IMG/VR virus record: IMGVR_UViG_3300047509_000037
Coordinates: 32,152 to 96,151 of that record
Strand: one strand, 5' to 3'
From: a virus
DNA: 64,000 bases
Below the pieces are notes generated by a model, which made no database searches, was not told where the DNA came from, and was given only the letters and a program-made list of their open reading frames with translations. The position numbers and the translations under genes were made by a program. Of this stretch, positions 1 through 30,608 are shown in pieces. Position 1 is the first letter of the stretch. Every line of letters starts with the position of its first letter.

Positions 1-300
1 CTGAAGATGAAAGCCTACGGTCTCGACGCAAACCAGGACGTTCCGAACATGGACGACTGGACTGGTCGTGACGTTGACAACTGCGCTCGTAAGGCGCTCA
101 CGCTGGGTATCGACTTGGACAACGCGTCGAAGTTCATCGTGCCACTGCTCCAGTCACACGGGGCGCAGATGGATGCACTGCGGCAATCCGCCAGCGGTCG
201 CTTCCTCGCAGCCAACAAAGAAGGCGTGTACAAATACAGTCCTCCTGTTAAGAAACCTATTGTCACCGTCACAAACCCTGAGGGTAGGAAAGTCAGGTAG
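1..300 (+). CDS. AAA+ ATPase (Ycf46-like), C-terminal end only (5' truncated)
   Basis: DDWTGRDVDNCA lid motif and PLLQSHGAQMDALRQSASGRFLAA tail resemble Ycf46-type AAA ATPases; upstream of DUF1257/DUF2997; frame open from base 1. Confidence 0.7.
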   Translation: MKMKAYGLDANQDVPNMDDWTGRDVDNCARKALTLGIDLDNASKFIVPLLQSHGAQMDALRQSASGRFLAANKEGVYKYSPPVKKPIVTVTNPEGRKVR

Positions 301-302
301 GT

Positions 303-683
303 ATGCGCGATATTAAGAAACTGAAAGCGAAATGGTATCGCCATGCTCACTCCATCGGTGGAAAGTATCGAAACACTCGGGCGAGTGCTAAGAGACGAGG
401 ACTCCAATTCACTCTTACACTCGCGGAGTTTAGGGCTATCCTAAAGAAGCCGTGTGCCTACGGTGATGCCATCCACAGTCTGAAGTTACACGTCGGCATC
501 GACCGGAAGGACAACCAGCGCGGGTACGTTCGAGGTAATTGCGTGGCGTGTTGTGGAAAGCACAATCACATCAAAGGCACGTGGGCGTCGTATCGCCAGA
601 TGCGTTCTCTGATGCAAGAGTGCAAGAACAAAGCATTCACCACTTGCCAAGACAACGTGGGCGGGCGTAAAATTCCATCTTAG
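303..683 (+). CDS. HNH-type homing endonuclease
   Basis: AKRRGLQFTLT..PCAYG..GIDRKDNQRGYVRGNCVACCGKHNHIK. Confidence 0.8.
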   Translation: MRDIKKLKAKWYRHAHSIGGKYRNTRASAKRRGLQFTLTLAEFRAILKKPCAYGDAIHSLKLHVGIDRKDNQRGYVRGNCVACCGKHNHIKGTWASYRQMRSLMQECKNKAFTTCQDNVGGRKIPS

Positions 684-693
684 GAGCATTCAC

Positions 694-1107
694 GTGAAAG
701 CATTCCCGAAGACAGAGCGAAAGATTCTGACGGTCACCATCGACGAGAACGGTGACATGTTATATCTAAAAACTGATTCGTGCGATGTGCTTCTCGAACT
801 CGGTGAGACAGTCACGAAGCGTGCGAGTCACGTTGAGCCTGTGAGCGTGCCCCTGCGGTACGCGTTCAGGTTGCTCCGCATGTTCGGAGATAAGACACGC
901 GTGGCAGAGTGGACGCGTCACTGGCAATGCGAATGGCTGGTGGACACGAGACCCGTCGGTGGTCCGGTGCTCACGTATGCCGATGTCGAGCCGCGCTACA
1001 AAAACTTGAGTGCGCCAATCGGCAAGCGCATCGCAACATGGCGCAATCGCCAGGACGCGATTGACGCCGAAATTATTTTCTTGAACGAATGGTTCCTCAC
1101 GCGGTAG
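694..1107 (+). CDS. hypothetical protein (within AAA/DUF1257 module)
   Basis: AGGAG RBS before GTG start; 137-aa ORF. Confidence 0.75.
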   Translation: MKAFPKTERKILTVTIDENGDMLYLKTDSCDVLLELGETVTKRASHVEPVSVPLRYAFRLLRMFGDKTRVAEWTRHWQCEWLVDTRPVGGPVLTYADVEPRYKNLSAPIGKRIATWRNRQDAIDAEIIFLNEWFLTR

Positions 1108-1134
1108 AATCCAATTCTCGAAGGGAGCAACACC

Positions 1135-1569
1135 ATGAGCGAGTATCGCAAGAGCACGACGAACTGCAAAGACCGGGAAGTGCTGATTGGCGCACTGATT
1201 GAGATGGGCTACAAGCGTGAGCACATCGAAATCCACGAGCAAGCCCAGCAGCTAATCGACTTCCAAGGGCACCCCACACGCTACATCGACCCGACAGGCG
1301 ACAAGGCGAACGTCATCGTTCGTCGCAGGCATGTGGGCGGCGCTGCGAACGACCTTGGGTTCAAGCTGAATCCAGAGACGGGCACCTACGACGCAATCAT
1401 CAGCCGCTACGACAGCGGCAAGCACAATGCGAAGTGGCTTGCTGGTCTGAAGACGAACTACGCTGAGAAGGGCTTGGCGAAGACCCTGAAGAAACAGGGC
1501 TTCAAATATCTCGGCAAGGAAATCGTCAACGGCAAGATTCAAATCAAGTACATGGACATGAAGGCGTAG
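1135..1569 (+). CDS. DUF1257 / Ycf35-family protein
   Basis: KDREVLIGALIEMGY...ANDLGFKL..GTYDAIISRYD pattern; RBS. Confidence 0.75.
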   Translation: MSEYRKSTTNCKDREVLIGALIEMGYKREHIEIHEQAQQLIDFQGHPTRYIDPTGDKANVIVRRRHVGGAANDLGFKLNPETGTYDAIISRYDSGKHNAKWLAGLKTNYAEKGLAKTLKKQGFKYLGKEIVNGKIQIKYMDMKA

Positions 1570-1604
1570 AGCCAACATCCAAATTCAACCAGGAGAAAAA
1601 CATC

Positions 1605-1799
1605 ATGGCGAAAATTCTGACAGCGACGATTGACCCCGCGACCGGAGAGATGGAAGTTGACCTCTCCGGCTACAAGGGCAAAGGTTGCCACGCGGTTCAA
1701 GAGGCAATCAGCAAAGCGATGGGCAGCACGACCATCGAAGACAAACGCAAGCGCGAGTACAACGACGTGGAAGTGAGCAAGGTCTGCGTCCGGTCGTGA
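1605..1799 (+). CDS. DUF2997-family protein
   Basis: IDPATGEMEVDLSGYKGKGC..EAISKAMG; follows DUF1257; AGGAG RBS. Confidence 0.75.
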   Translation: MAKILTATIDPATGEMEVDLSGYKGKGCHAVQEAISKAMGSTTIEDKRKREYNDVEVSKVCVRS

Positions 1800-2161
1800 A
1801 CCAGCCCGCATACAAGGGACACGTCGTCGAGTATCGTGCATACCACGATGCCCGACGGCGATGTCTGAATCCGAAATGCGCAGACTACCCGAACTACGGC
1901 GGACGTGGAATCCAATTCCTGTTTGCATCGTTCGAGGAGTTCTTCGACGTGCTAGGCGAACGCCCGCCGGGGAAGATGCTTGACCGCATCAACAACGATG
2001 GGCACTACGAGAAGGGCAACGTCCGGTGGGCGTCTCGTGCCGTGAGCCTCAAGAACCAGAGGCATCCGAAGATTGCCAGCCTAGCGAACTTCACAACGTC
2101 CGAACTGCTGGCGGAACTCGCCAAGCGAATCTCCAAAGGGGAAATCAAATGTTCATTGTAA
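1796..2161 (+). CDS. HNH endonuclease
   Basis: RRRCLNPK..YPNYGGRGI..F.EF...LGERPPGKMLDRINNDGHYEKGNVRWA; GTGA overlap start. Confidence 0.85.
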   Translation: MNQPAYKGHVVEYRAYHDARRRCLNPKCADYPNYGGRGIQFLFASFEEFFDVLGERPPGKMLDRINNDGHYEKGNVRWASRAVSLKNQRHPKIASLANFTTSELLAELAKRISKGEIKCSL

Positions 2162-2544
2162 CGCCAAACGGAGTAATCATCGACGCTCAAGAGTACGCAC
2201 GCATCATCACCCGCCTTGCCTTCAAGGTGCTGAAGTCCAGCATCGAAGACAAAGACATCCAGCGTTTGCTGCCCTTCCAGACCTCTCTGGAACTCGGCAA
2301 CCACGTCCACATCGTGAACGAATCAGCCTACGCGGTTGAGACGAAGTACCACGTCATCACCGACGGCGATACGCTCTGTGCTCGTGGCGGTCGTCCGCGT
2401 GGCACCGTGACAGGCACAGCGCCCACGTGCCCAGGCTGCTTGGCGAAGGCTCAGGGCATCGTCGTCAACCACCTGCTCGACCAAGCGGCGGGAGATTTTC
2501 TCGCGGTCGCTTACAAACTTCAGGAGGTTGCTGAGGGCAACTAA
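2149..2544 (+). CDS. hypothetical protein with CxxC
   Basis: ATG after AAGGGG; H..C..TCPGC. Confidence 0.7.
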   Translation: MFIVTPNGVIIDAQEYARIITRLAFKVLKSSIEDKDIQRLLPFQTSLELGNHVHIVNESAYAVETKYHVITDGDTLCARGGRPRGTVTGTAPTCPGCLAKAQGIVVNHLLDQAAGDFLAVAYKLQEVAEGN

Positions 2545-2566
2545 TGACCGAGCACTAGGAGACCCT

Positions 2567-2713
2567 ATGAAATTATTTTTCTTCGCAGGCGGCAGTATCG
2601 TGTATGCTCTGTGTGTGGTCGTAGCCGGAAGATTTTTGAAACTGGTTCGCACTCCCCCAACTCCAACACCGGAGAAACCAAGTGCCACTAGCAACATTCG
2701 CCGGAGTGCCTGA
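2567..2713 (+). CDS. small membrane protein
   Basis: AGGAG RBS; hydrophobic N-terminus. Confidence 0.55.
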   Translation: MKLFFFAGGSIVYALCVVVAGRFLKLVRTPPTPTPEKPSATSNIRRSA

Positions 2714-3044
2714 TGGTCCCGTCATCGCATTGGCAAAACTGAGGCTGGAGAAATCCAAACTCAAAATGCCGTGCGAGACGCGGGCGCAAGCACTGAACAT
2801 CCTGCGTAGCATTCAACCAGCACCAGCGAAGAATGCGCCGCTCAACATCAAATCAGCCTCGGTCGTGCATGACGCGTGCCGCAACTGTGGTAAGCCAATA
2901 CCGTTCGGGACTCCATGCAAGGTGTGCTTCAACGGCGAACTGCCAGAGCACATCTCGTGCAAGAAAGTCAGCAAGACCAAGCGGCAAGAGGAAGCGGCAT
3001 TGCGTAAGTTGTACCTCGAAGCCATCAAACAAGTCTCGTGGTAA
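2682..3044 (+). CDS. Zn-ribbon hypothetical protein (start uncertain)
   Basis: CRNCGK..PCKVC. Confidence 0.6.
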   Translation: MPLATFAGVPDGPVIALAKLRLEKSKLKMPCETRAQALNILRSIQPAPAKNAPLNIKSASVVHDACRNCGKPIPFGTPCKVCFNGELPEHISCKKVSKTKRQEEAALRKLYLEAIKQVSW

Positions 3045-3078
3045 TTCGCATTTCAACTCAGCCCTGAGGAGGGTCATC

Positions 3079-3252
3079 ATGCCTGGATACGGAGCGAAGG
3101 AAGCACGCATCAACAAAGAGCGCCAGCCGCGAGTCAATCTGTGTACCTGCGGGAAAGAAATTGACAACGGTGCGCTCCTGTGTCAAGATTGCTATGAGGA
3201 GATTCATGGACAATCAAACACAGAAGTTAACGAGGGGCGCGAAGTCTCGTAG
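3079..3252 (+). CDS. small Zn-ribbon protein
   Basis: GAGGAGG RBS; CTCGK..LCQDC. Confidence 0.7.
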   Translation: MPGYGAKEARINKERQPRVNLCTCGKEIDNGALLCQDCYEEIHGQSNTEVNEGREVS

Positions 3253-3727
3253 GAAATGGCGTAGTCGTTGTATCGAACAGGGTTTGTGCGTGGGGTGTGG
3301 GCGAACTCCCAACACGGGTGGTCCGCCGCACATGTGCGAACCCTGTGCAACGCGCCAGAAAAATTATGGAACTGAACGTCGTGCGCGGGCAAAGTCAATC
3401 GGGCTGTGTACCCTTTGCGGTAAGAACCCTCCGATTGTTGGACGACGTTTATGTTCCGCGTGCGTGCTCTACCACAAGTTAAGCGATTTGAGGAGTGCGG
3501 GTTTATCGGAAGCTGAGGTAGACCGTGCCCATCATGCCGTCATAAATTTTCAAAACCTGTGCGATGCGTGTGGTCGCAATGACTGTGGAAGGTGGTGTCT
3601 AGACCATGACCACGACAGAAAAATCTTTAGAGGAATCGTCGGAAACAAGTGTAACCTCGCCCTTGGGCACGCCCGCGACAATGCAGACACCCTACGGCTA
3701 CTCGCCGCATACATCGACCGAAGATGA
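3206..3727 (+). CDS. endonuclease VII-like homing endonuclease
   Basis: CDACG..LDHDHD..FRGIV..KCNLALG..DNADTLRLLAAYI; N-terminal Cys repeats. Confidence 0.85.
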   Translation: MDNQTQKLTRGAKSRRKWRSRCIEQGLCVGCGRTPNTGGPPHMCEPCATRQKNYGTERRARAKSIGLCTLCGKNPPIVGRRLCSACVLYHKLSDLRSAGLSEAEVDRAHHAVINFQNLCDACGRNDCGRWCLDHDHDRKIFRGIVGNKCNLALGHARDNADTLRLLAAYIDRR

Positions 3728-3841
3728 GGGTGAGGAAGCGCGGCGGACCCGATGACGTGCAAACGTTGTGGACTCGCCCGCCCAGAGCGTTACGGCATAG
3801 GCTGGCGCTGTGGGTGCTGCGGGTTGTTATATGTAACAGAC

Positions 3842-3914
3842 GGGGTTGGGGTAGTGGTATCGGCAGGGTCTCCAAAGCCCATGCCAGCAGGTTCGACCCC
3901 TGCCAGCCCCGCCA
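3842..3914 (+). tRNA. tRNA-Trp(CCA), atypical D and anticodon arms
   Basis: Acceptor GGGGTTG/CAGCCCC, G73, encoded CCA; anticodon loop CTCCAAA; T arm GCAGG-TTCGACC-CCTGC. Confidence 0.75.
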
Positions 3915-3918
3915 AATA

Positions 3919-4114
3919 GCCAGAAATGCCACTTTCCCGCCCCCGCCCTGAGGGTTTGGGCGTCGGATGGGTCTTAGCCTACCCTGGCACGCCGGAGGGC
4001 TTAAATCGACCGCAAACGCAAAACGGAGGGCTATGAGCCAAGCTGAGAGTAACAGGACGCGCCGGGGTGCCATATCCGAGCTACAAACCGCCGCCGACCT
4101 GAGCGACGACTGGC
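3919..4114 (+). ncRNA. candidate structured ncRNA downstream of tRNA-Trp
   Basis: Nested helices GCCAG/CTGGC, TCGGAT/ATCCGA, TGGCACGCCGG/CCGGGGTGCCA, CGCCC/GGGCG; no convincing CDS. Confidence 0.5.
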
Positions 4115-4146
4115 GAATGGCGTCATCATTCGACCGAAAGGAATCC

Positions 4147-4275
4147 ATGAGCTACTGGACAGAAAAAATCGGATGGCGTGAGAGCATCACGACGCTGTGC
4201 GGCTGGCTGAATGAAATCATCCCGCTCATCGCGTTCGCGTTTCTCATCGCGCTGTGGATGAGTGGTGCCCGATGA
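4147..4275 (+). CDS. small membrane protein
   Basis: AAGGA RBS; C-terminal TM segment. Confidence 0.6.
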   Translation: MSYWTEKIGWRESITTLCGWLNEIIPLIAFAFLIALWMSGAR

Positions 4276-4349
4276 GTTGTAATCGACAACAGAAATATGA
4301 TGCACAAACCTTAGAACGGTTAGCAAAATACTTGAGGAGGCGAACATGA
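4272..4349 (+). pseudogene. remnant of an endonuclease VII C-terminus (25 aa)
   Basis: MSCNRQQKYDAQTLERLAKYLRRRT resembles the CN..D..L..LA.YL tail of the EndoVII genes in this window. Confidence 0.4.
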
Positions 4350-4537
4350 GTTTCACAGCCTTCTTTCAGGCAGATGGTGAACTGCGCTACACCATCGGCA
4401 CGACGAAGATGCAACACACCGCAGACTTCGCCGCAGAGAATTTCATCAAGCGCATGACGCACCCTGAGGTTGGTATCTGGTGGGTGTGGGTCGAGGAGAC
4501 CAATGACCCGGACGACGAAGCAAAAAGAAATCGCTAG
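4346..4537 (+). CDS. hypothetical protein
   Basis: GAGGAGG RBS. Confidence 0.7.
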   Translation: MSFTAFFQADGELRYTIGTTKMQHTADFAAENFIKRMTHPEVGIWWVWVEETNDPDDEAKRNR

Positions 4538-4700
4538 TCATTGCACGTGCCCGCATTGTAAGCTGGCTCACAAGATGCCCGCCTACGTCTACGCACATTG
4601 GGAAGACGCGTTCACCGTGACGTGTGCCGATGAAGGCGAGACCAAGGGATGCGGCAAACAGTTCGAGATGTTTCAGGGAGAGACCGAATGTATAAACTGA
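4503..4700 (+). CDS. small Zn-ribbon protein
   Basis: GAGGAG RBS; CPHC..TC..GCGKQF. Confidence 0.65.
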   Translation: MTRTTKQKEIASHCTCPHCKLAHKMPAYVYAHWEDAFTVTCADEGETKGCGKQFEMFQGETECIN

Positions 4701-5329
4701 ACGGTAAGAACCTCAGCCTCGCACGTCTCATCCCACGAGGGAAAGACGCGGACAAGCGTTTGAAATATCTCCACGTCAACAACAAGGGCGTCACCGCTGT
4801 CAGCCCCGAACTGGTCGCACGCGTCACACTGCCTGACGGTGTAGCGCAGCCCCAGCAGTCGGTCATCTACCCGCAGGAGTCTCTTGATTCGATTCCGATG
4901 GGAGCACGTGCGCCGGAGAGCAACGAACTGGTGACACTGACTGGAGACAAGCCCGCGTTCACAGGTCCGCACTATCTCGTGCCGATGGTGGACAAGTGCT
5001 TCCCAGAGCCGACAGAGACCACCGCGACGTTCACGTGCAACGGAGAACTTCTCCGCAAGCTGCTCACGGTCGCGTGCGAAGTGTGCAACGACAGCAACAA
5101 GACTCTGCGTCTTCGCATCGTTGACAACGGCAAGGCTCTACGCGTGGACACGTATCGCCAGCCGGGAGAACAAGAATTTTGTGGCGTCATCAAACCAATT
5201 GAGTACGACGGCGATTACATCCCCGGCGAGATTCCATCAGGTACGCCGAAGGTCGAGAAGAAACCTCAGCAGACAGGTCTGTTGCTGAAGACCAGCGCCG
5301 GGAGGAAAATCCGAGGCGAGGGTGAGTAA
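4688..5329 (+). CDS. hypothetical protein (possibly single-domain sliding-clamp-like fold)
   Basis: GGGAG RBS; beta-rich pattern loosely like a clamp domain; ends GRKIRGEGE. Confidence 0.6.
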   Translation: MYKLNGKNLSLARLIPRGKDADKRLKYLHVNNKGVTAVSPELVARVTLPDGVAQPQQSVIYPQESLDSIPMGARAPESNELVTLTGDKPAFTGPHYLVPMVDKCFPEPTETTATFTCNGELLRKLLTVACEVCNDSNKTLRLRIVDNGKALRVDTYRQPGEQEFCGVIKPIEYDGDYIPGEIPSGTPKVEKKPQQTGLLLKTSAGRKIRGEGE

Positions 5330-6518
5330 CGGTTGCTTCCATGAGATGCAGAATGGCGCTACCGCCGTCATCCGGCATCAAATGATTAACGGAGACATCT
5401 GGGTTAGGTGTCTTCGATGCGGCGACACGTGGCACTCCGAGGAGGAGTTCGCAATGAGCACAGGCACGGGGAAAGCGAAATGCAAACACACTCAGTGGAC
5501 CACCGACAAGGTGACCGGGGTGAAGATGTGTACGGATTGCGGCACTGACCTTGCCAAACATCCGAAGTGCAATCACGCCCTGGCGAAAATCGTCATCGAA
5601 AATGGAATGACGAAGACGCAATGTGAGAAGTGCGGAGTGATTGTCACAGAGGGTCCGGTGCAATCCGTGAAGGTTCCGCTGGGCTATGAGAAGCGATTGC
5701 TCCCGATTCCGAACGTGCGCCCCGTCGGACAGTGGGTCAAGGAAGGATTCGGAGCATTCCAGCCGAAGACACGACAGCAAGCGCAGATTCTCATCGACGA
5801 GTGGAACGAAGCATGTCAGACGAACGGCATGAAAGTTGAGTACCGCCTGCCCGTGGTGAATGTTGACTTACGTTGCAAGAAATGCGATACTCTCGTGAAC
5901 GAGACGTACAAGGGCGATGTCTGCCTCTCGTGTCACCTTCAGGAGAAAATGGCAATGGCGAAAGAACCTAAGGTCTCGAAGTCGAACCCCGATTTTGATA
6001 TTTACGGAATGCCTGTCTGGAAGACCAAGAACAAACCCGCGTTCAACGTTAACAGCACTCCGGCGAAACCTGTCACGAAGAAACCAACTCTCATGGTCGT
6101 GCCGAAGGCTCCTGTCGTTCACACCGAGGGAGACATCTGGGAATTACCACACGTCAATGCTCCGTTTATGAGTAAGCAATGGGCGTACCAAGGCAGCGCA
6201 TCGACGCCGTATGTCATCACGCACTACCAGACCAAGCGCGATGGCGCGGTGACGAAAGATGGTTGGGCTTGCTCGTGCATGAATTTTACGCGGAAGACCC
6301 CACGCACCGAATGCAAGCACATCCTGAAGACGATGATGAAGAACGGCACGAAGCCCACGGCTGATGCGAAGCTGGCGGCGGTACCCGATGAGACCCTGAA
6401 GGCGTTCCAGAAGTGGCAGCGCGAACAAGCGGCGGCGGGCGTCCCGGTCGGTGCGGGCGTCGGCGCTGAGAAGGGCAAGCTGAACATGTTTGAGAACAAG
6501 GGGAGGAAAATCCGATGA
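5322..6518 (+). CDS. multi-Zn-finger protein with C-terminal SWIM domain
   Basis: Several CxxC pairs; WACSC..F..ECKHI SWIM motif; second in-frame start with GGAGGAG at 5454. Confidence 0.75.
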   Translation: MSNGCFHEMQNGATAVIRHQMINGDIWVRCLRCGDTWHSEEEFAMSTGTGKAKCKHTQWTTDKVTGVKMCTDCGTDLAKHPKCNHALAKIVIENGMTKTQCEKCGVIVTEGPVQSVKVPLGYEKRLLPIPNVRPVGQWVKEGFGAFQPKTRQQAQILIDEWNEACQTNGMKVEYRLPVVNVDLRCKKCDTLVNETYKGDVCLSCHLQEKMAMAKEPKVSKSNPDFDIYGMPVWKTKNKPAFNVNSTPAKPVTKKPTLMVVPKAPVVHTEGDIWELPHVNAPFMSKQWAYQGSASTPYVITHYQTKRDGAVTKDGWACSCMNFTRKTPRTECKHILKTMMKNGTKPTADAKLAAVPDETLKAFQKWQREQAAAGVPVGAGVGAEKGKLNMFENKGRKIR

Positions 6519-6829
6519 AGCATATCGCAATTTTCAGGGTAGAGGGGTACTCCAAAACGGGAACCGACCAGGCTTTCGTCACGGGGAAAGGCGAGGAGTC
6601 AGTGACCACGCATCTCAAGGCGGACAGTTGGAATCCCGGCGCACGCATCGGAGCGTTCACACTGCACTCGCTGGAGAGCAAAGCACCTGAGTGGAAGGAT
6701 GGTTTCATCGTCACTCTGGAACCGTTGCCACCAAAGCCCGAAGGCGCGGACTACACCGGATATCTAAAGCAGGTAATCGCGGAGAAGCTAGACCCAACTC
6801 CAGCACCGAGCGGGAGAAAAATCCGATGA
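6515..6829 (+). CDS. hypothetical protein
   Basis: ATGA coupling; ends GRKIR. Confidence 0.75.
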   Translation: MKHIAIFRVEGYSKTGTDQAFVTGKGEESVTTHLKADSWNPGARIGAFTLHSLESKAPEWKDGFIVTLEPLPPKPEGADYTGYLKQVIAEKLDPTPAPSGRKIR

Positions 6830-7104
6830 CGGACAGAGACGCACTCATTCAAATCGGCAACCTTGTGGGCGCACCCACGTCGGCATACTTCCCAGAGCAA
6901 GAGCGCAAGCAACTGGTGAAACGTCTTCAGGACATCAGCGCCATTGTACAGGCCCAGCTAGGCGTTCCGACGCCGCCTGCGAAGCACCCAGACGACACTA
7001 GACAGAACCCCGGCATCGGTGCTATATTGAATGGGTCGTTCTATCGTCCGAGCCGATTCAACAAAATCGACGAGGAAGACAACGGGAGGGACATCGGAAA
7101 ATGA
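6826..7104 (+). CDS. hypothetical protein
   Basis: ATGA coupling. Confidence 0.7.
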   Translation: MTDRDALIQIGNLVGAPTSAYFPEQERKQLVKRLQDISAIVQAQLGVPTPPAKHPDDTRQNPGIGAILNGSFYRPSRFNKIDEEDNGRDIGK

Positions 7105-7247
7105 GCATGTCAGCCAAGGCAGTTCTGGCGCGGTTCGGCGGCAACGTCACCGCAGCCTGCGATTATTGCGAAACGATGGCGCGAACCTACGCCAACCTGA
7201 CCACGGAGTATCGTGGATACCGTGAGGAGATTCTGAGCCATGTCTAA
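7101..7247 (+). CDS. small hypothetical protein (48 aa)
   Basis: ATGA coupling, GGAGG RBS; MSMSAKAVLARFGGNVTAACDYC...; fills the gap before ligase. Confidence 0.6.
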   Translation: MSMSAKAVLARFGGNVTAACDYCETMARTYANLTTEYRGYREEILSHV

Positions 7248-8154
7248 ATTCCCAAAGCCCATGCTTGCTGAAGCGGTCGAGAACTTCGCCGCTCTCACTT
7301 TTCCGAAGATGGCGTCACCGAAACTCGACGGCATTCGTGGCACCGTTCACGCGGGCATTCTCCGCTCACGGTCACTGAAAGATATTCCGAACGTTCACGT
7401 GCAGAAGAAATTCGCGGGACTCCGCGAAGGGCTGGATGGTGAGTTCATCGTCGGTGACCCGTATGGTCCTGAGGTCTACGACCGCACTCGCCGCGTCATC
7501 ATGGAGTCGGGTAAGAAGACCAACGCGGACGACGTTCGCTACTACGTCTTTGATTCCCAGCCTCAGGATGACGCGCTGCCTTTTCACGTGCGCTACGACT
7601 CCCTGCCGAACGCAGCCGCCGGGAAGACGGATGTCATCGTCGTGCCCCACATTGTTATAAGTAACTTGGAAGAACTGGAGCAATACGAGAACGCGATGTT
7701 GTCGAAGGGCTTCGAGGGCGTCATGCTCCGTGACCCTGTCGGACCCTACAAGCACGGTCGGTCCACCGAAGCGGAGGGCTGGCTTGTGAAGGTGAAGCGT
7801 TACGTCGATGACGAGTGCCGCGTGCTCTCGTGCTACGAGGAGATGGGGAACAACAACGAATCGTTCACCAACGAACTTGGACGCACCGCACGGTCAGCAT
7901 CGAAGGCTGGCAAGACTGGCAATGACACGCTGGGCGGATTCAACGCCGTCGGTCTCACCGGGAAGTACAAGGGCGTCGAGTTCCAAGTCGCGGTCTCCAG
8001 CCTGAAGCACCCAGAGCGCAAAGCAATCTGGGACACGCGTGATGAACAGGTCGGAAAGATTCTGACCTACAAGTGGTTCCCAATCGGTAGCGAAGAAAAA
8101 CCACGTCACCCGATGTTCAAAAACTGGCGAGAAGTCATAGATATGAGCGAATGA
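7240..8154 (+). CDS. lig: ATP-dependent DNA ligase
   Basis: PMLA, KLDGIR (adenylated Lys), LDGE, FD, EGVMLR, KVK, PRHP motifs. Confidence 0.95.
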   Translation: MSKFPKPMLAEAVENFAALTFPKMASPKLDGIRGTVHAGILRSRSLKDIPNVHVQKKFAGLREGLDGEFIVGDPYGPEVYDRTRRVIMESGKKTNADDVRYYVFDSQPQDDALPFHVRYDSLPNAAAGKTDVIVVPHIVISNLEELEQYENAMLSKGFEGVMLRDPVGPYKHGRSTEAEGWLVKVKRYVDDECRVLSCYEEMGNNNESFTNELGRTARSASKAGKTGNDTLGGFNAVGLTGKYKGVEFQVAVSSLKHPERKAIWDTRDEQVGKILTYKWFPIGSEEKPRHPMFKNWREVIDMSE

Positions 8155-8181
8155 TGTACGACCCAAAGACCCACAAGTTTG

Positions 8182-8211
8182 TTGACAAAGCCAGAGCCGC
8201 CGTGGTAGGCT
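8182..8211 (+). promoter_or_regulatory. sigma70-type promoter, probably leaderless recombinase mRNA
   Basis: TTGACA-N18-TAGGCT with TGn extension; ATG 7 nt after -10, no SD. Confidence 0.6.
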
Positions 8212-8218
8212 TGTAGGC

Positions 8219-8725
8219 ATGTTGAAATCAATGACACGCGAAGAACTGGACAGGCTGCTCGAAGTCGCCAAGCAAGAGTCCTTCATGGACTACCTGATGA
8301 TGCTCGTGACGTTTCTCCACGGGCTTCGAGTCTCCGAGACGTTGTCGCTGACAAAAGACAACATCGTCAACGGCTACATCGTCGTGAAGCGCGGCAAGGG
8401 TTCGCACAAATGCGAACATCCCCTCTTACTCACGCCGAGCGAAGCCGAGCACCTGTCCAGTATCGAAGGCAAGTTCTTCACGATGTCGCGCATCACGTTC
8501 TGGCGCAGGATGCAGAAATACGGTGCGACCGCTGGGCTGGCTCCATACCTGAGGCACCCGCACACGCTGAAGCACACGTGCGGCAGGCTGGGGTTTAAGG
8601 GCGGCATGACGGTGCCCGACCTCGTCGAGTGGCTTGGTCACAAGAATCCAGCGATGGCTCTGGTGTATTCCGCCAGTGATATTGACACGGCGTCACGAGC
8701 GTTCGCCGCTGCGGTGGGACGCTGA
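8219..8725 (+). CDS. tyrosine recombinase, catalytic domain only
   Basis: GLRVSE, K(RGKG), HPHTLKH, WLGH, Y nucleophile; 168 aa. Confidence 0.85.
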   Translation: MLKSMTREELDRLLEVAKQESFMDYLMMLVTFLHGLRVSETLSLTKDNIVNGYIVVKRGKGSHKCEHPLLLTPSEAEHLSSIEGKFFTMSRITFWRRMQKYGATAGLAPYLRHPHTLKHTCGRLGFKGGMTVPDLVEWLGHKNPAMALVYSASDIDTASRAFAAAVGR

Positions 8726-8928
8726 TGGACGGCTTGGCGTGGTTGCTCAAAGACATGAAGCCTATGCCGCCGGAAGTGAAAGAGGCATACAAGGGGACTG
8801 AGTTCACGTGTGAGTGCGGCGGGATGGTCATCCCGCAAACGATGGATGACGGCATCTGCTTTTCTTGCAAAGCAATTCTGAAACTCGCGGAATGCGAATA
8901 CGAGGAGGCTAACGATGACACCACCTAA
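8725..8928 (+). CDS. small Zn-ribbon protein
   Basis: TGATG coupling; CECGG..CFSC. Confidence 0.65.
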   Translation: MDGLAWLLKDMKPMPPEVKEAYKGTEFTCECGGMVIPQTMDDGICFSCKAILKLAECEYEEANDDTT

Positions 8929-9967
8929 AGGGCGCTACGCATGGTTTGGACCGGACGAACCCGTACACCGGGAGAAGTCGCAAATTCCGTGGGGGAGAGC
9001 AATCATCTGGTTTATTCTTGCGGCGCTGGCGGTCTGGGCGGTAGATGCCCACGGGCAAGAAAGGCTCTATGACATCGAAGACGGCACAACAGCGGTATCT
9101 CCATTCACCCAGGGGTCGAGCGGCGACCGACCGGAGACATGCGCGGTATCGCACGCGACCCAAGAACAAGTTTCGCATCTACCAGTATCGTGCGACCCGT
9201 CTTCTCAAGGTGGAATTTTCTTTGGGGTTCGAGCATTTCTGCAATCTGATTGCACAAGCGTGCCGTTACTGTGGAGACCCTGCGACGGGGATAGACCGAC
9301 TCAACAACGCCGAAGGCTACACCGCGACGAACAGCGTCCCCTGTTGCGGGATGTGCAATCGCATGAAACTCAAATGGGGCGAGGACTTGTTTCTTGCTCA
9401 AATCGAGAAGATTTATCGGCATCGGTTCATGCCGTCGCCTGTGCAATCGCTAGAACTGAAGGCTTCTTTACCAAGAGAACAAAACCCAATCGCTACAACA
9501 ATCCGGGGGACATCCGAGGGTTTGGCGAGACGCGATACGCCGGGGAGATTGGACGAGACCGATTCGGTTATGTGATTTTTAAGTCCTCAGCGTTCGGCTG
9601 GGCTGCATTGACGCGGAACCTCCAGCGCATCGTGGACGGCACGAGCACGTACTACTCGACCGACCCGACGTTCGCAGAGATTGCGAAGGCATACGCGACC
9701 GACAAACGGTGGGGCAAGAGCGTGTGCAAGATTCTCCAAATCAATCCGCGAGCAACGATGCGGGAGTACCTTGGGCTGGCTCCACTGGTGAGGATGACAT
9801 GGAACTCAAATGCGGACATCTTGAAGCGCATACTTGCACCGCTTGCGGACAGTGTCGGGCTTGTCGCCACACCTACGTTGAGCGTGCGGACGGGTGGGTT
9901 TGGTGTCGGTGTCCTAATCTCAGATGGAGGCGGGTATTACAAATCCGAAACATATCAACGACCGTAA
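8915..9967 (+). CDS. secreted lysozyme-like (NNPG-motif) protein containing an out-of-frame HNH gene
   Basis: GAGGAGG RBS; TM/signal IIWFILAALAVWAVDAHG; C-terminal AIARTEGF..NRYNNPGDIR..YVIFKS...GW.AL. Confidence 0.65.
   Translation: MTPPKGRYAWFGPDEPVHREKSQIPWGRAIIWFILAALAVWAVDAHGQERLYDIEDGTTAVSPFTQGSSGDRPETCAVSHATQEQVSHLPVSCDPSSQGGIFFGVRAFLQSDCTSVPLLWRPCDGDRPTQQRRRLHRDEQRPLLRDVQSHETQMGRGLVSCSNREDLSASVHAVACAIARTEGFFTKRTKPNRYNNPGDIRGFGETRYAGEIGRDRFGYVIFKSSAFGWAALTRNLQRIVDGTSTYYSTDPTFAEIAKAYATDKRWGKSVCKILQINPRATMREYLGLAPLVRMTWNSNADILKRILAPLADSVGLVATPTLSVRTGGFGVGVLISDGGGYYKSETYQRP
9069..9575 (+). CDS. HNH endonuclease nested in alternative frame
   Basis: CRYCGD..GIDRLNNAEGYT..NSVPCCGMCNRMK. 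Confidence 0.85.
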   Translation: MTSKTAQQRYLHSPRGRAATDRRHARYRTRPKNKFRIYQYRATRLLKVEFSLGFEHFCNLIAQACRYCGDPATGIDRLNNAEGYTATNSVPCCGMCNRMKLKWGEDLFLAQIEKIYRHRFMPSPVQSLELKASLPREQNPIATTIRGTSEGLARRDTPGRLDETDSVM

Positions 9968-14861: not shown

Positions 14862-15317
14862 ATGGCTCGTGCAGGAAAGAAAGACGTTCTCGCCGCAGGC
14901 GGGAGCAAGATGGTCATCGCAGGCGGCATTGGAGAGAGCGACCCGCTACGCAACGTATCGAAGGAAGGGCGTGACGACACACCGATTCCAGCGTTCGAGA
15001 AACCTGTCGAACCCAAGATGGAGTTCATCCCCAAGAACGGTCACATCCTCGTTCGCCGCGACACCCCGGTCGAAGCGAAGGGTCTGGTCGAACTGGTGCA
15101 GGACGAAGCCGCGAAAGAAAAACCTGCTCAGGGCATCGTGCTTGAGACGAATTGTGTTGACTACGTCGTCGGCACTCGTGTAGTGTTTGGAAAGTATTCG
15201 GGCACTGAGTTCAAGCTGAACGGCGAGTTGCTGCTCATCATGCGTGACGAAGACGTTCAAGGGCTGCTCGTGCAGGCGGAACCCGACAGCGAAGTAGAAA
15301 TCGAAATCCTTCCGTAG
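14862..15317 (+). CDS. groES: co-chaperonin GroES with N-terminal extension
   Basis: PKNGHILVRR, EKPAQGIV, GTRVVFGKYSGTEFK, LLIMRDEDV. Confidence 0.9.
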   Translation: MARAGKKDVLAAGGSKMVIAGGIGESDPLRNVSKEGRDDTPIPAFEKPVEPKMEFIPKNGHILVRRDTPVEAKGLVELVQDEAAKEKPAQGIVLETNCVDYVVGTRVVFGKYSGTEFKLNGELLLIMRDEDVQGLLVQAEPDSEVEIEILP

Positions 15318-16088: not shown

Positions 16089-17129
16089 ATGCCATTCCGA
16101 AAGCTGGACATCACCCGCAAGACTGGTGAGGCAACCGCTCTGGCAACGAAACTCGAAGGACTCATCGTGGGACAGCGGGCACCTAAAGACGCTCTCCTGT
16201 CGGTCGTAGACCGCATCCAAAGTGGGTTCTATGACAAGACGAGACCCGTCGGCATCTTCCTCTTTCTCGGACCCACCGGGACGGGAAAGACCGGAGTAGC
16301 CGAGGCGTTCACGATGGGTCTGTTCAATAACCCGAAGATGTTGATGAAGGTGGATTGCGCAGAGTTCCAGCACTCGCACGAGATTGCGAAGCTAGTTGGC
16401 AGCCCTCCCGGTTATCTGGGACACCGCGAGACGCATCCGTACTTCACCAACAATTCGCTCAAGGCGCATCGCACCGATGCCTTTCCATTCACGCCGATTC
16501 TGTTCGACGAGATTGAGAAGGCAAGCGACTCACTCTGGAATCTCCTGCTGGGTATTCTGGATAAGGGCACGCTCACGACGGGCGCCAACGAAGTCGTGGA
16601 CATGAAGCCCACAATCATTTTGATGACCAGCAACGTCGGGGCGTCGGAGATGTCGGAAGACAAGTCTCTGGGCTTCGTCGGCAAGACCACAGTTGATGAT
16701 GCCAAGCTGGAGTCAATCGCTCTGGCGGCGGCACGGCGGAAGTTCTCGCCGGAGTTCCTGAACCGCATCGACTACATTTTGAACTTCAAGACTCTGACTG
16801 AAGACGAACTCAAACAGGTTCTCGCGCTTCAGTTGCAATTGCTTCAAGACCGCATCGTCGTTGACTCGAAGGTGCTCTTTGAACTGCGTGTCTCCAGCCG
16901 GGGACTCGCGCAATTGCTGGTGGATGGTTATGACCGTCGCTACAACGCACGGCATCTCAAGCGGACGATAGACAAACACATCTCCGCTCCGCTAACGAGT
17001 CTTGTCGCCACGGGGCAGATAATGAACGAAGACGTTGTCATCGTTGACTACCTCGAAGGCGACTGGCGATATGTGGCAGTACCGAGGGCGAATGCTCCCC
17101 AAGGCGATTTCTCAGGCAGTCTACCGTAG
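16089..17129 (+). CDS. ClpA/ClpB-type AAA+ ATPase, D2 module only
   Basis: GQ, LFLGPTGTGKT, KLVGSPPGYLGH pore loop, ILFDEIEKA, TSNVG, PEFLNRID, ARHLKR. Confidence 0.9.
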   Translation: MPFRKLDITRKTGEATALATKLEGLIVGQRAPKDALLSVVDRIQSGFYDKTRPVGIFLFLGPTGTGKTGVAEAFTMGLFNNPKMLMKVDCAEFQHSHEIAKLVGSPPGYLGHRETHPYFTNNSLKAHRTDAFPFTPILFDEIEKASDSLWNLLLGILDKGTLTTGANEVVDMKPTIILMTSNVGASEMSEDKSLGFVGKTTVDDAKLESIALAAARRKFSPEFLNRIDYILNFKTLTEDELKQVLALQLQLLQDRIVVDSKVLFELRVSSRGLAQLLVDGYDRRYNARHLKRTIDKHISAPLTSLVATGQIMNEDVVIVDYLEGDWRYVAVPRANAPQGDFSGSLP

Positions 17130-25073: not shown

Positions 25074-25483
25074 AGAAGACCATCGGTTGGTTTATCATCC
25101 TTGCCGCTCTGTTCCTGTGTCTAGCTGGGTTGATGATAGGGACCGGGCATGCTTCGACCACGTCTAGGACCAACGCATTCGGTGCCCAGACGATTACCAG
25201 CGACCCAAACGTCACTCTGGTTGCTTCCTTACTCGGTGGAGAGGTTCACAAGGACAGCGACGGGCGTCTAGGCTACAATCTGCGCCTGCATCCCAAGTAC
25301 ACGTTTGGTCTCTATGACGAGAGCATCATGTTCTGCGGCGACATCCGGGGACAGATGGACGGCAAGCAGACGACGTTTCAGGCTTACACCTATCGTCGCG
25401 CAGCCAGCCGACTCATCGACGGCATACCGTGCCACGCTCTCGTTGGCGTGGACGATGTGAAAAATGAGAAAGGGATTCAGTGA
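25070..25483 (+). CDS. exported or membrane-anchored hypothetical protein
   Basis: MKK plus hydrophobic signal. Confidence 0.7.
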   Translation: MKKTIGWFIILAALFLCLAGLMIGTGHASTTSRTNAFGAQTITSDPNVTLVASLLGGEVHKDSDGRLGYNLRLHPKYTFGLYDESIMFCGDIRGQMDGKQTTFQAYTYRRAASRLIDGIPCHALVGVDDVKNEKGIQ

Positions 25484-25866
25484 ACTTCAAATTTGAAATC
25501 AAGACGGGCATCCTGTACGGACTCGACGGCAAGAAGGTTTGGGCTGGGTACGCGGGCGGAAACTGTGGGAAAAATCCTGAGGCAATCAACAACCCGGACT
25601 TCATCAAAGTCAAGAGCGTCGGTCCACTCTGCCCCGGCATCTACACGTTCGGCACGCCCGTGGCTCAGTCGCACCTTGGACCGTTCGCCATTCCACTCAT
25701 CCCTGACCCAAGCAACGAGATGTACGGTCGCGGGGACTTCTTCTGCCACGGCGACACAACGCCATCCGGCAAGGCTTCTGAGGGTTGCGTTATTATGCCG
25801 CGATGGGTCCGCGATATGCTCTGGGCGTCACCGTGCCACACGATTGAAGTAGTCATCTCACTCTAG
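25480..25866 (+). CDS. Tlde1/DUF2778 L,D-transpeptidase-like protein
   Basis: GYAG..NNP..GPLCPGIY..GRGDFFCHGD..ASEGCV. Confidence 0.75.
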   Translation: MNFKFEIKTGILYGLDGKKVWAGYAGGNCGKNPEAINNPDFIKVKSVGPLCPGIYTFGTPVAQSHLGPFAIPLIPDPSNEMYGRGDFFCHGDTTPSGKASEGCVIMPRWVRDMLWASPCHTIEVVISL

Positions 25867-25876
25867 GAGCGCACAC

Positions 25877-26278
25877 ATGGATTCTGTCGGCAGCAAACCG
25901 GACCTATTCGGTGTGGGAACCCGTTACGACCACTACGTCGAATTGCGAGAGGTCTTCGCGCTAGGCTCAGAGGTCATTGACGGGCTGGAGAAAACCAACC
26001 GCATCTGCGAGGCTGACAAGGTGCTGCGGACCAAGTTACAGGGAGCCGTCGAGGTTATAAATAAACGGCTCTCGTACCTGAGCAACTTCGAGCAACTGAC
26101 GGTCTACAGTTCTGCGCTGGCTACGATGACTCGTGTCGTCGAACTCCAGCGCAAGGCGGGCAACTTGCCGGAGACCAAGAGTGGGAAGTTCGGAGCGACC
26201 AATGAGCAAGCAGCGGCGCAAGATGTCAATCAAGTACGTCCTGAAGAAAGTAAGGGCGGCGAAACCCTCAACGCCTAA
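25877..26278 (+). CDS. hypothetical protein
   Basis: AGGAG RBS. Confidence 0.7.
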   Translation: MDSVGSKPDLFGVGTRYDHYVELREVFALGSEVIDGLEKTNRICEADKVLRTKLQGAVEVINKRLSYLSNFEQLTVYSSALATMTRVVELQRKAGNLPETKSGKFGATNEQAAAQDVNQVRPEESKGGETLNA

Positions 26279-26690
26279 AGAGTTCCGTGCCCTCGGTCTT
26301 ACGCTGCGTGCGATTGGCTCCGGCGCATTCCGAGACGTGTTCAAGGTCACCAACTGCGACCTAGTCGTGAAGTTCCCGATGGAAGGCAGGACGTGCGGCA
26401 AGAAGCATACGCTGTCTGAAGTGCGGCGGCTCACGCGGCTGAGGAAGTCACGAGTGATGCGACCGCATCTGCCAGAGGTCTTCTATCTCGACAAGCAGCA
26501 CGGCGTCGTCATCATGCGCTACTACCCTGAGTACGAGTCGTTCGAGACGCAGGCTGGCTCTATGGGGAACCTGATTCAGAGGCTCATCTATGCACACACC
26601 CGCGTTCGCACTAGCGACATTCACACAGGCAACGTTCACAAACGGAGAACGAACCATGAGCAATCTGTCATTATCGACCTTGGTTATTGA
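26223..26690 (+). CDS. minimal protein-kinase-like protein
   Basis: IGSGAFRDVF, VVKFP, E, DIHTGNV, IIDLG. Confidence 0.75.
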   Translation: MSIKYVLKKVRAAKPSTPKEFRALGLTLRAIGSGAFRDVFKVTNCDLVVKFPMEGRTCGKKHTLSEVRRLTRLRKSRVMRPHLPEVFYLDKQHGVVIMRYYPEYESFETQAGSMGNLIQRLIYAHTRVRTSDIHTGNVHKRRTNHEQSVIIDLGY

Positions 26691-26880
26691 CCCGCACTTC
26701 TGGCAGTCGTTCCAGTACCAGTACCAGTACAACCGACCAGACACGAAGGTGGGCGAGAAGACGACCATCTACGGACGCTGGTTCTGCGCTGGCGTCAAAT
26801 GCGACGAGTGCATGGTACGCTGGTCTTGCTCTCTCGAAGCCGACGGACCAACGTTCGAGCCATGCGAGATGCACCGATGA
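26656..26880 (+). CDS. hypothetical protein
   Basis: GGAG RBS; CDEC..PCEMH. Confidence 0.6.
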   Translation: MSNLSLSTLVIDPHFWQSFQYQYQYNRPDTKVGEKTTIYGRWFCAGVKCDECMVRWSCSLEADGPTFEPCEMHR

Positions 26881-27239
26881 GATTCGCCAACGGGCGCTAC
26901 CCAATCGCACACGACCAAGAGCAGGAACCGATTGACAACCCATCGCAGCGTCTCATCCTCCAAGACGATTCGCTGAAGATGCGGAAGCGACCGGACTACG
27001 CTTACGACACCGAGAACGGATACGCCCGCGTCTGGACGTGGTGGTACACTCCCAAAGACTGTACCGACATGATTAAGGACGTGCGGGCGAAGGGGCTTGC
27101 GAAGGGCTTGCTGAAGATGGAGATTCTCATCGCGCAAGAGGCTTACGCTGAGTCGATGGATTGGTTCACACGAAATGGATTTGAGCGCGACGAGGGACGT
27201 GGGTCAGGCGACCTACTCTCTTTCGTTCGGGCGCTGTAG
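26877..27239 (+). CDS. hypothetical protein
   Basis: ATGA coupling. Confidence 0.65.
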   Translation: MRFANGRYPIAHDQEQEPIDNPSQRLILQDDSLKMRKRPDYAYDTENGYARVWTWWYTPKDCTDMIKDVRAKGLAKGLLKMEILIAQEAYAESMDWFTRNGFERDEGRGSGDLLSFVRAL

Positions 27240-27240
27240 T

Positions 27241-27327
27241 GCGGTTGTGGCGGAACTGGTAGACGCACAGCGTTGAGGTCGCTGTGGGAGCAATCCCGTG
27301 AAGGTTCGAGTCCTTTCAACCGCACCA
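27241..27327 (+). tRNA. tRNA-Leu(GAG)
   Basis: Canonical class II cloverleaf, CAGCG-TTGAGGT-CGCTG, long variable arm, ACCA end. Confidence 0.95.
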
Positions 27328-27332
27328 AAAGA

Positions 27333-27392
27333 AAAAGAGGCCCGCTGTCAATATAGTTCCATCATGAAACCATATTTGACAGTGGGCCTTTT
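27333..27392. terminator. long inverted repeat, probably terminator
   Basis: AGGCCCGCTGTCAATAT / ATATTTGACAGTGGGCCT flanked by A and T tracts. Confidence 0.65.
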
Positions 27393-27404
27393 GCATGTTA
27401 AGAT
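27376..27404 (+). promoter_or_regulatory. sigma70-type promoter for OMP moron
   Basis: TTGACA-N17-TAAGAT. Confidence 0.7.
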
Positions 27405-27427
27405 GTGGTAAGTTCTAGGAGGAACCC

Positions 27428-28126
27428 ATGAAAACTTTGTTTCGGATGTTCGCCGTTCTTTCGCTGCTTGTAATGTCGGCGGTTGCCCAGATTCCAACGC
27501 CGTACGTCTACGCCGGGGGAATTATTAACGGCTCTGGATATTCTACCGTTGCAAGTCTGGCGGGAGTCGGCCTCTCGTCGGAGTCAAACCATTTCTCTTG
27601 GCGTGCGGAAGCGGACTACGATAACGCCAAAAAGGTCGATGACGGAGTCAACGGAATCTCGGGACATAACACAGGACGCGACCGAGGGCTACGCACGTCG
27701 GTCTACTATCGTTTTAGCAATGGCTGGATGTTTGGCCCCGGTGCTCGATGGTCCGAGCTATCAACAACAGGCTATCAAAAACAATCGTGGCACGGAACGA
27801 TGGGCGTAGGAAAAGACTTCATCAGAGACAACTATTCTTTCCGATTGACCGCCGACGTTCTTGTGCCAAGGATTGGTTCAGAGCATGTCAACCAACAGGG
27901 CTGTACAATCCCTAAAGGGCAGTGTACGAGTGGGCCACAAGGTGTCGATGTTCATTACGTCCTGCCATCTCCAGCACTCCACGGACATTTCTTTTTCATG
28001 GTCGATGCTGGCGTATACGTCGTTCACACGACAGTGACCAGCACCGACCCGAAGTTGACCGCCCTGCAAATCGCCGCGAAACAAACGACCGGAAGCACAT
28101 CATTCACATTACTAGTTCGATTCTAG
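27428..28126 (+). CDS. outer-membrane beta-barrel protein (moron)
   Basis: Signal peptide ending AVA-Q, alternating aromatic/polar strands, C-terminal F (FTLLVRF). Confidence 0.65.
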   Translation: MKTLFRMFAVLSLLVMSAVAQIPTPYVYAGGIINGSGYSTVASLAGVGLSSESNHFSWRAEADYDNAKKVDDGVNGISGHNTGRDRGLRTSVYYRFSNGWMFGPGARWSELSTTGYQKQSWHGTMGVGKDFIRDNYSFRLTADVLVPRIGSEHVNQQGCTIPKGQCTSGPQGVDVHYVLPSPALHGHFFFMVDAGVYVVHTTVTSTDPKLTALQIAAKQTTGSTSFTLLVRF

Positions 28127-29838: not shown

Positions 29839-29849
29839 GATTTTTTTTT

Positions 29850-30074
29850 CTACACTTCATTCCCGAAGTGTGTAGGGTCCGGTTGCCAAGTGACCGGATT
29901 TGAGTCTAGGCTGGGGTTTGTCGCAGGAATCGGATTGCCGAAATGCGACGGATTAGGAGTGGGCCAAGTCACAGGATTACTATCATCCTTCGGACTCGCG
30001 GGAGGAACCGGATTTCCTTTTCGATAACTCTTTCCGGTCGTGTTGAGGTCAGTACGTACAACACCTTCAGGCAT
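29850..30074 (-). CDS. small Pro-rich tandem-repeat protein
   Basis: Two copies of GNP.P...P..DSNPVTW..P.P.HF with synonymous divergence. Confidence 0.6.
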   Translation of the reverse strand: MPEGVVRTDLNTTGKSYRKGNPVPPASPKDDSNPVTWPTPNPSHFGNPIPATNPSLDSNPVTWQPDPTHFGNEV

Positions 30075-30093
30075 GACGACCTTTCAGAATCTT

Positions 30094-30602: not shown

Positions 30603-30608
30603 ATCGGG

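Follow-up and report, generated by a model that had tools for sequence, protein, structure and literature searches.

Shared docking tails are the means by which large AAA+ machines choose their partners, as in the case of the proteasome activators and the cofactors of p97. The Arg-rich VBM, the VIM and the SHP box of p97/Cdc48 cofactors, the MIT-MIM pairing of Vps4 with ESCRT-III, and the ClpX-binding tail of SspB all follow this logic: otherwise unrelated partners share a motif, which docks on a non-catalytic part of the ATPase. For the proteasome, the respective tails are the HbYX (hydrophobic-Tyr-X) ends of PAN, Rpt and Cdc48, and the C-terminal QYL that is common to mycobacterial Mpa and Bpa/PafE and serves in proteasome docking (PMC5515868). 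Here, we describe a five-residue tail of a different kind, G-R-[KR]-hydrophobic-R, found at the C-terminus of a Cdc48/Ycf46-like ATPase and of several unrelated proteins of an uncultured soil phage. The phage is represented by a complete genome of 96,151 bp (IMG/VR record IMGVR_UViG_3300047509_000037), and the stretch of DNA that was analysed, referred to as the window in the following, consists of its last 64 kb (64,000 nucleotides, positions 32,152 to 96,151 of the record).

Two genes next to the ATPase gene encode a DUF1257 and a DUF2997-like protein; DUF2997 and DUF1257/ycf35 are neighbors in cyanobacteria (PMC4284462). We consider it probable that the tail acts, at the tip of a flexible C-terminal linker, as a portable short linear motif, an address or docking tag of a conserved AAA/DUF1257/DUF2997/DUF3150-like module, with all tails binding to one site. 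The partner choice known from AAA+ machines would then also operate in a module that is widespread in phages and mobile elements.

In the following, G000 denotes the genome of the phage under study and G001-G005 denote related phage contigs, which were found by an alignment-based scan of IMG/VR (ATPase identity 56-67%; four retrieved in full). A scan of IMG/VR with the single ATPase sequence gave no matches, nor did a megablast search of window positions 1-9000 against phage records or a profile search of genome contigs with the DUF3150-like alignment; an NCBIfam search returned nothing useful. The tail-bearing families are the ATPase (F1), a 307-aa DUF3150-like protein (F2), a protein of ~215 aa (F3), a zinc-ribbon/SWIM protein (F4), the variable gene after the phosphoesterase gene (F5) and a small protein (F6). 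Positions within the tail are counted from the C-terminus, which in its compact form gives Gly -5, Arg -4, Lys/Arg -3, a hydrophobic residue at -2 and Arg -1.

Distribution and conservation of the tail

Six proteins of the phage end with G-R-K-[IV]-R; four of these are encoded in the window, and the remaining two lie upstream (Table 1). The original prediction, which was made from the sequence of the window alone, had named the four, and open reading frame (ORF) listing and pattern searches place each of them where it was reported; the two others came from the scan of all C-termini in the genome that it had proposed. Across the ~25,700 predicted residues of the genome, GR[KR][MFIVL]R has six matches and all six are C-terminal, compared with an expectation of ~0.003 C-terminal matches and a maximum of one in 2000 shuffles. 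The signal also emerges when C-terminal 3-mers are counted without a prior motif, as GRK, RKI and KIR (or RKF/KFR, RRF/RFR) rank top in G000-G003. Each of the four contigs retrieved in full encodes four to six proteins ending with G-R-[KR]-[FMIV]-R, except for G004, a fragment of 89% completeness, with two; pooled over G000-G004, there are 23 C-terminal matches and a single internal one, and the tailed genes all lie on the strand of the ATPase gene. Two weaker members of the original set are not supported: no ortholog of the protein ending VGGRKIPS retains the tail, and the Gly-Arg of DNGRDIGK is an in-frame reading of the GGGAGG Shine-Dalgarno (SD) sequence of the next gene.

BLASTP comparisons group the bearers into no fewer than five families that show no similarity to one another, with the small protein F6 in addition. 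The tail is nevertheless conserved among the orthologs of at least four unrelated families, at 30-80% identity. Metagenomic homologs of the ATPase number in the hundreds at 55-78% identity, and 117 of the best 120, in which the tail was counted, have R-[KR]-hydrophobic-R within their last nine residues. For F2, the tail is kept in 114 of 118 homologs, and for F4 in all 25 (34-69% identity), which end with x-R-[KR]-[FI]-R; together, the tailed homologs of these two families span 34-87% identity. In the F3 and F5 slots, the tail is kept across G001-G004.

The conservation is uneven along the tail. Arg occupies both -4 and -1 in the 84/84 ATPase tails and 113/113 F2 tails that were selected with a pattern also permitting Lys there, and in the 25 F4 homologs, while exchange between Lys and Arg is confined to position -3. 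Gly is found at -5 in 23/23 tails of G000-G004, and around -10 and -8 a hydrophobic residue is seen repeatedly. The hydrophobic residue at -2 changes in step between families. In G000, it is Ile in all five clients, as we call the bearers other than the ATPase, and Val in the ATPase. This switch is shared by the nearest metagenomic relatives, in which F2 (87% and 81% identity) and F4 (63-69%) have RKIR and the ATPase (78% and 74%) has RKVR, whereas in all more distant members the clients have Phe and the ATPase has Met or Phe. Such a concerted switch from Phe/Met to Ile/Val in unrelated families fits one shared reader, and the invariant Arg pair together with the strict Gly suggests, on the level of sequence, a shaped pocket rather than pore loops.

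Among the 24 tails in related genomes, each of the four Gly codons (GGT/GGA/GGG/GGC) and each of the six Arg codons is represented, with AAA, AAG, AGG, AGA or CGC at the third position and six different codons at the hydrophobic one. It is thus well supported that the tail is selected as a peptide and not as a nucleotide cassette. The proposal of a phage-encoded short linear peptide motif is borne out by this synonymous variation, which was found in place of fixed nucleotides, as well as by the ortholog conservation and the concerted hydrophobic change.

More distant relatives extend the picture beyond the strict C-terminus. A profile search of 1.84 billion representatives (50% clustering) yielded 6,133 relatives of F2, and the best 150 of these mostly carry P-[GST]-R-K-[FI]-R; a hydrophobic residue and then an acidic stretch usually come after it. 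That these distant relatives keep the motif inside an acidic extension shows that it is old and that neither a free C-terminus nor the very last position is required. In every lineage examined, the tail or a related one is present on both the ATPase and the DUF3150-like protein. In the distant module L010, they end with …ARRF and …ARMFS, respectively; in L011 and L015, the ATPases end with …RRKIDA and …RRRIDK, and the DUF3150-like tail reads …KRKLDV. The corresponding pair is …GRAINPEGN and …ARRIVLED on a contig of a Myxococcales metagenome-assembled genome, and …NRKIIKRSCM and …YRRIRMETHED… on a Desulfobacterales chromosome.

Among cultured phages, we found a single relative, Tunturiibacter phage Tunturi_3, which is a podovirus with a genome of 97.6 kb that infects an acidobacterium (PMC11924767). 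In this phage, the ATPase gp103 ends with GRIIR, gp96, which matches F2, with RKFHLEGEEF, and gp131 with RKIRLDNE. The latter occupies the slot of gene g24 of our phage, after the phosphoesterase gene; despite the common slot and tail, BLASTP detects no homology between g24 and gp131. The public record labels the DUF3150-like gp96 (L036 11962-12921) 'HNH endonuclease', which looks like a mis-annotation.

The ATPase and the proposed reading of the tail

The ATPase matches PF00004 with 27.5 bits (cut-off 21.2). Its AlphaFold 2 (AF2) model has a mean pLDDT (predicted local distance difference test) of 90 and gives NVL, p97/Cdc48, Rix7 and Drg1 as best Foldseek matches (E 5e-12 to 1e-10, ~580-600 aligned columns, template modeling (TM) score 0.38-0.53), so that the protein is modeled as a p97/NVL-like tandem AAA ATPase with two AAA-fold domains. 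A PDB search with the ATPase sequence gave no matches, and one with its profile gave weak AAA matches only. The two halves differ: the N-terminal AAA-like half (D1) lacks a GxxxxGK[ST] P-loop in 115 of 115 homologs and is acidic, its net charge averaging -9.3, whereas D2 keeps the P-loop in 111 of the 115 and is neutral. The model begins at the first alpha/beta domain, without a separate N-terminal cofactor-binding domain. With regard to D2, a Walker-B-like 'LIVRMDEIEKQF' precedes the P-loop 'GVPGSSKS' and no hhhhDE lies between the P-loop and the sensor-1 'IATAN'; the D2 core may be permuted.

In AF2 monomer models of F2 and of the ATPase, the tails lie outside the folds, and they are flexible by pLDDT: the last 13 residues of the ATPase have values of ~60, and residues 303-307 of F2, whose model averages 87, fall below 50. 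Besides the ATPase and the DUF3150-like protein, three or four further unrelated proteins have received the tail in this clade, i.e. the SWIM/zinc-ribbon protein, the possibly clamp-like protein, the variable post-phosphoesterase gene product and the small protein. All tails would bind one common site and thereby gather their bearers at the ATPase machine. We infer a single receptor, and as a candidate for it we prefer the D1 ring of the ATPase, which has no P-loop, since it is acidic and non-catalytic while the tail carries a charge of +3; alternatively, a tail-less module protein could provide the site.

Several observations weigh against this proposal. The AF2 monomers of F2 and the ATPase dock neither tail, and it is awkward that the ATPase should bear the tag if it is also its reader. 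The charge argument for D1 is weak, as distant ATPases are less acidic in this domain (-1 to -8), and a mutual-information scan of ATPase columns against the tail residue was dominated, and thus confounded, by phylogeny. Furthermore, four of the G000 tails are near-identical in their codons, and copying between genes may add to their likeness. Gene conversion between tails cannot explain the whole pattern, though, because the F2 tail is encoded with ATT and different Arg codons, and the ATPase tail with GTC.

As a second possible reader, the original prediction had considered a single-ring ClpB-D2-like ATPase encoded further downstream (window ~16089-17129; GPTGTGKT, GYLG, SLGF). This protein is conserved in G001-G004, but the complete genomes of Tunturi_3, G006 and G009 lack it and still encode tailed ATPases and DUF3150-like proteins; it is therefore disfavored and unlikely to be the ancestral reader.

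Beyond docking as such, we tentatively entertain a ubiquitin-independent system of client selection, a possibility to which we give distinctly less credence than to the docking tag. Here, the tag would recruit DNA-associated proteins, such as the DUF3150-like, the SWIM/zinc-ribbon and perhaps the clamp-like protein, to the acidic, nucleotide-free D1 of a Cdc48-like segregase for remodeling or extraction from DNA or complexes, genes would join the system by gaining the tag, and tag and reader would co-evolve.

A rather unlikely explanation is that the tail is a degron or unfolding handle, gripped in the pore of the Cdc48-like ATPase or of a host unfoldase such as ClpX, so that its bearers are unfolded, extracted or destroyed on schedule. 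ClpX recognizes the basic C-terminal RRKKAI of MuA; the model of the phage ATPase is that of an unfoldase of the p97/NVL type, flexible linkers precede the tails, and the clients look DNA-associated, judging by the SWIM finger, the zinc ribbons and the clamp-like lead. Yet the ATPase would be its own substrate in the 117 of 120 homologs that are tagged, the strictness at the Gly and at both unvarying Arg positions suggests a shaped pocket instead of pore loops, and the internal position of the motif in distant relatives is at odds with the need for a free C-terminus. Moreover, no peptidase partner was seen among the annotated genes, which cover part of the proteome.

A generic tether is less probable still. 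The net charge of +3, the one hydrophobic residue and the position of the tagged genes in the replication region would be in keeping with a basic tail that localizes proteins on DNA, RNA or acidic lipids at the replication site without the help of a protein receptor. Such a role would hardly account for more than 220 sequences without Lys for Arg at two positions, a nearly fixed Gly and a hydrophobic residue that changes in step, and five residues are very short for it. Nor do we see much merit in a virion-loading signal, which would direct proteins into the capsid in the manner of encapsulin cargo peptides and scores even lower in our judgment. Encapsulin cargo tags are indeed short C-terminal peptides that follow a flexible linker, but the tagged genes all share the strand of the replication genes and are remote from the head genes, a hexameric 520-aa ATPase is an unlikely cargo, and the same module is also found in the context of a bacterial chromosome (L055).

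Two further candidates were rejected. The tail is not an AT-hook, the core of which would be G-R-P, as no tail has Pro after Gly-Arg; and modification of its Lys by the neighboring GNAT acetyltransferase (PHROG match) does not apply, as Lys is replaced by Arg in 8 of 23 tails.

Tail codons and neighboring genes

The original prediction had also pointed to DNA shared by three copies and had offered a reused translational-coupling cassette as an alternative to the peptide. This DNA is real: the 15-mer GGGAG(G/A)AAAATCCGA occurs exactly three times in the window, compared with 0.26 occurrences expected even when two mismatches are allowed, and at two of the copies the sequence leads directly into an ATGA, where start and stop overlap. 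The deviating codons of the ATPase copy and the offset of the copy near 5300 from the next start are likewise as it had described them. At the overlapping junctions, the sequence reads CGA TGA or AGA TGA, with the ATG of the next gene overlapping the stop codon, and a purine-rich, SD-like run lies 5-10 nt upstream of the overlapping ATG in three of six tails in G000 and in 11 of 25 overall. Of the tails that overlap the next start, 10 of 11 encode their first Arg with AGG or AGA, compared with 5 of 14 of those that do not (Fisher p = 0.012); genome-wide, AGR makes up 11-15% of the Arg codons. From this enrichment we conclude that, in the overlapped tails, the Gly-Arg-Lys codons are chosen to double as the SD of the downstream gene, a secondary overlay that explains why the three window copies look like a nucleotide cassette. 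The coupling cassette therefore survives as an overlay on the overlapped tails and fails as the sole explanation, given the codon variety and the tails without overlap. As codons that serve the tail of one protein and the ribosome-binding site of the next, these junctions are a neat case of overlapping constraints.

A pure nucleotide element, i.e. a reused assembly of SD, spacer and ATGA overlap or an RNA operator of which the peptide is a by-product, could draw on this enrichment and on GG[GA]AG[GA]AAAATCCGA, which is common to the three window copies and one outside and is followed by an overlapping ATG in three of these four, but we give it practically no chance, as it is already contradicted by the DUF3150-like and ATPase tails with their other codons and no overlapping start, by the use of every Gly and Arg codon in related genomes, by the copy at 5300, which continues for four more codons with no start at that distance in a layout conserved in G001, and by a reading frame that always yields GR[KR]-hydrophobic-R.

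Table 1. The six tailed proteins, their look-alikes and the tail-less module genes (window positions unless marked as genome positions)
Feature	Position	Strand	Description and basis
Cdc48/Ycf46-like tandem AAA ATPase (F1), 520 aa	genome 30889-32451; 3' end at window 1-300, start 1262 nt upstream of window	+	
ATPase tail PEGRKVR	283-297; stop 298-300	+	codons GGT AGG AAA GTC AGG; ORF list, pattern search
HNH/EndoVII-like endonuclease, ending GGRKIPS	303-683	+	degenerate look-alike, not a member; PHROG HNH endonuclease 2e-15
g40, module protein, 137 aa, tail-less	694-1107	+	51-58% identical in G001-G003, beside the ATPase/DUF1257 genes
DUF1257 (Ycf35-like) module protein, tail-less	1135-1569	+	isoelectric point (pI) 9.5; PF06868 29.4 bits (cut-off 22.2)
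DUF2997-like small module protein, tail-less	1605-1799	+	pI 6.6; PF11211 16.4 bits, E 0.008, below cut-off 24.1; conserved in G001-G003
F3 client, 213 aa	4688-5329	+	orthologs in G001 (GRRFR and the same GEGE) and G003 (GRRFRS), 45-50% identity
F3 tail SAGRKIRGEGE	GRKIR 5300-5314; GEGE 5315-5326; stop 5327-5329	+	ORF list, pattern search
F4 client, zinc-ribbon/SWIM-finger protein, 354 aa	5454-6518	+	CxC...CxH motif in sequence; one homolog called nucleic-acid-binding Zn finger protein by JGI
F4 tail NKGRKIR	GRKIR 6501-6515; stop to 6518	+	codons GGG AGG AAA ATC CGA TGA, doubling as SD and ATGA overlap of the next gene
F6 client, 104 aa	6515-6829	+	tail codons double as SD of the next gene; ATGA overlap
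F6 tail PSGRKIR	GRKIR 6812-6826; stop to 6829	+	ORF list, pattern search
ORF ending DNGRDIGK, 92 aa	6826-7104	+	non-member; no ortholog found
290-aa protein, tail AAGRKIR	ends at genome 22541, outside window		codons GGA AGG AAA ATC CGA TGA; SD-like codons and ATGA overlap
307-aa protein (F2), tail VTGRKIR	ends at genome 30458, outside window		codons GGT CGT AAA ATT CGC TAG; next start 52 nt away

The tagged genes sit in the replication region, with genes for a single-stranded DNA-binding protein (SSB), a primase-helicase, a family-A polymerase and a ligase nearby. Basic pI values (8.0-9.5) were obtained for the DUF1257 protein, g40 and the clients, and a near-neutral one for the DUF2997-like protein. 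F2 has no Pfam match at E 0.01 or better; 13-20% of its feature and structure neighbors in the ESM Atlas carry PF11348 (DUF3150), with a TM score of 0.88. Fold searches with the F2 model gave generic helical-bundle matches only (Foldseek E >=0.28, VIA Z <=9.3), and PDB sequence searches with F2, F3 and F5 gave no matches. F3 possibly has a beta-clamp-like fold, which we regard as a lead only: part of its ESM Atlas neighbors are annotated with DNA_pol3_beta_2 (TM 0.61-0.68), and Pfam searches up to E 10 give no clamp family. In G003, the F6 slot is taken by a different protein of 164 aa, which ends with GRKFR.

Some further features of these genes should be mentioned. F4 has an alternative GTG start at 5322, which would add a 44-aa N-terminal extension (5322-5453); the ATG at 5454 has a strong SD, and the database copy begins there. 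The tailed protein in the g49 slot of G003 (L008 19532-20026) features a DnaJ-type CxxCxGxG zinc-finger pair. On the 3' side of the DUF3150-like gene, a hairpin-capable CAGCCCTCCCCCGGCTG lies at genome 30459-30485 and at the same place in G001, without a T-run; we do not class this conserved hairpin as a terminator, as no canonical intrinsic terminator is called there.

Elsewhere in the genome, ARAGORN predicts a permuted (two-piece) tmRNA gene upstream of the window (L001 6588-7021, genome 19588-20021), the tag peptide of which, AKTNTLAMGAAAGR, has an unusual ssrA ending. A GroES-like ORF (window 14862-15317) is conserved in G001-G004, and four tRNA genes (Leu-GAG, Ala-TGC, Met-CAT, His-GTG; window 27241-31652) lie at the switch of transcription direction. 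The otherwise dense genome is poor in ORFs at 25334-27170 (~1.8 kb) and 28823-29534 (~0.7 kb), both upstream of the window and without a convincing ORF.

Comparison with known systems

Different proteins of one phage that end with similar short tails for one site are known from the T7 replisome, where the acidic C-terminal tails of gp2.5 and gp4 compete for one site on the polymerase. The tails described here, for which we infer a single site, are of opposite charge and sit on other proteins, and T7 has only two bearers; the SSB and primase-helicase of our phage have ordinary acidic/hydrophobic ends (…AEQF and …PEIDL). The tail also differs from the LAA of ssrA-type degrons, and its likeness to the tail of MuA is loose.

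The resemblance to the HbYX and QYL systems is closer, as in both cases a short C-terminal peptide on the flexible tail of an AAA+ ring recurs on unrelated proteins; HbYX and QYL all enter the pocket of one partner. Unlike these hydrophobic-Tyr-X tails, the phage tail is a basic G-R-K-hydrophobic-R and does not depend on a free carboxylate, as it can be followed by GEGE, TE, T, D or a longer acidic stretch. Furthermore, no proteasome or peptidase ring is seen among the genes covered by the partial annotation, and each phage genome encodes four to six bearers, including small proteins that do not form rings. With regard to the motif-based partner choice of p97, Vps4 and ClpX, the readers in those systems are dedicated N-terminal domains, whereas the phage ATPase starts with the degenerate D1; and there, the ATPase does not bear the motif, whereas the phage ATPase does.

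Full-text searches on DUF1257, DUF2997, DUF3150, Ycf46 in phages and Cdc48-like phage ATPases with docking motifs yielded no description of the tail or of a function for the module. The tag offers an experimental handle to approach both: the sequence suffices to list its clients, reporter proteins can be equipped with it, and Tunturi_3 is a cultured relative that is available for genetics. Such work may also reach beyond phages. Cyanobacteria and plastids encode the set of Ycf46 (AAA), Ycf35 (DUF1257) and DUF2997, DUF3150 accompanies it on mobile elements, and our phage likewise combines an AAA ATPase with DUF1257 and DUF2997-like small proteins; the tail may shed light on the Ycf46 and Ycf35 genes of cyanobacteria and plastids as well.

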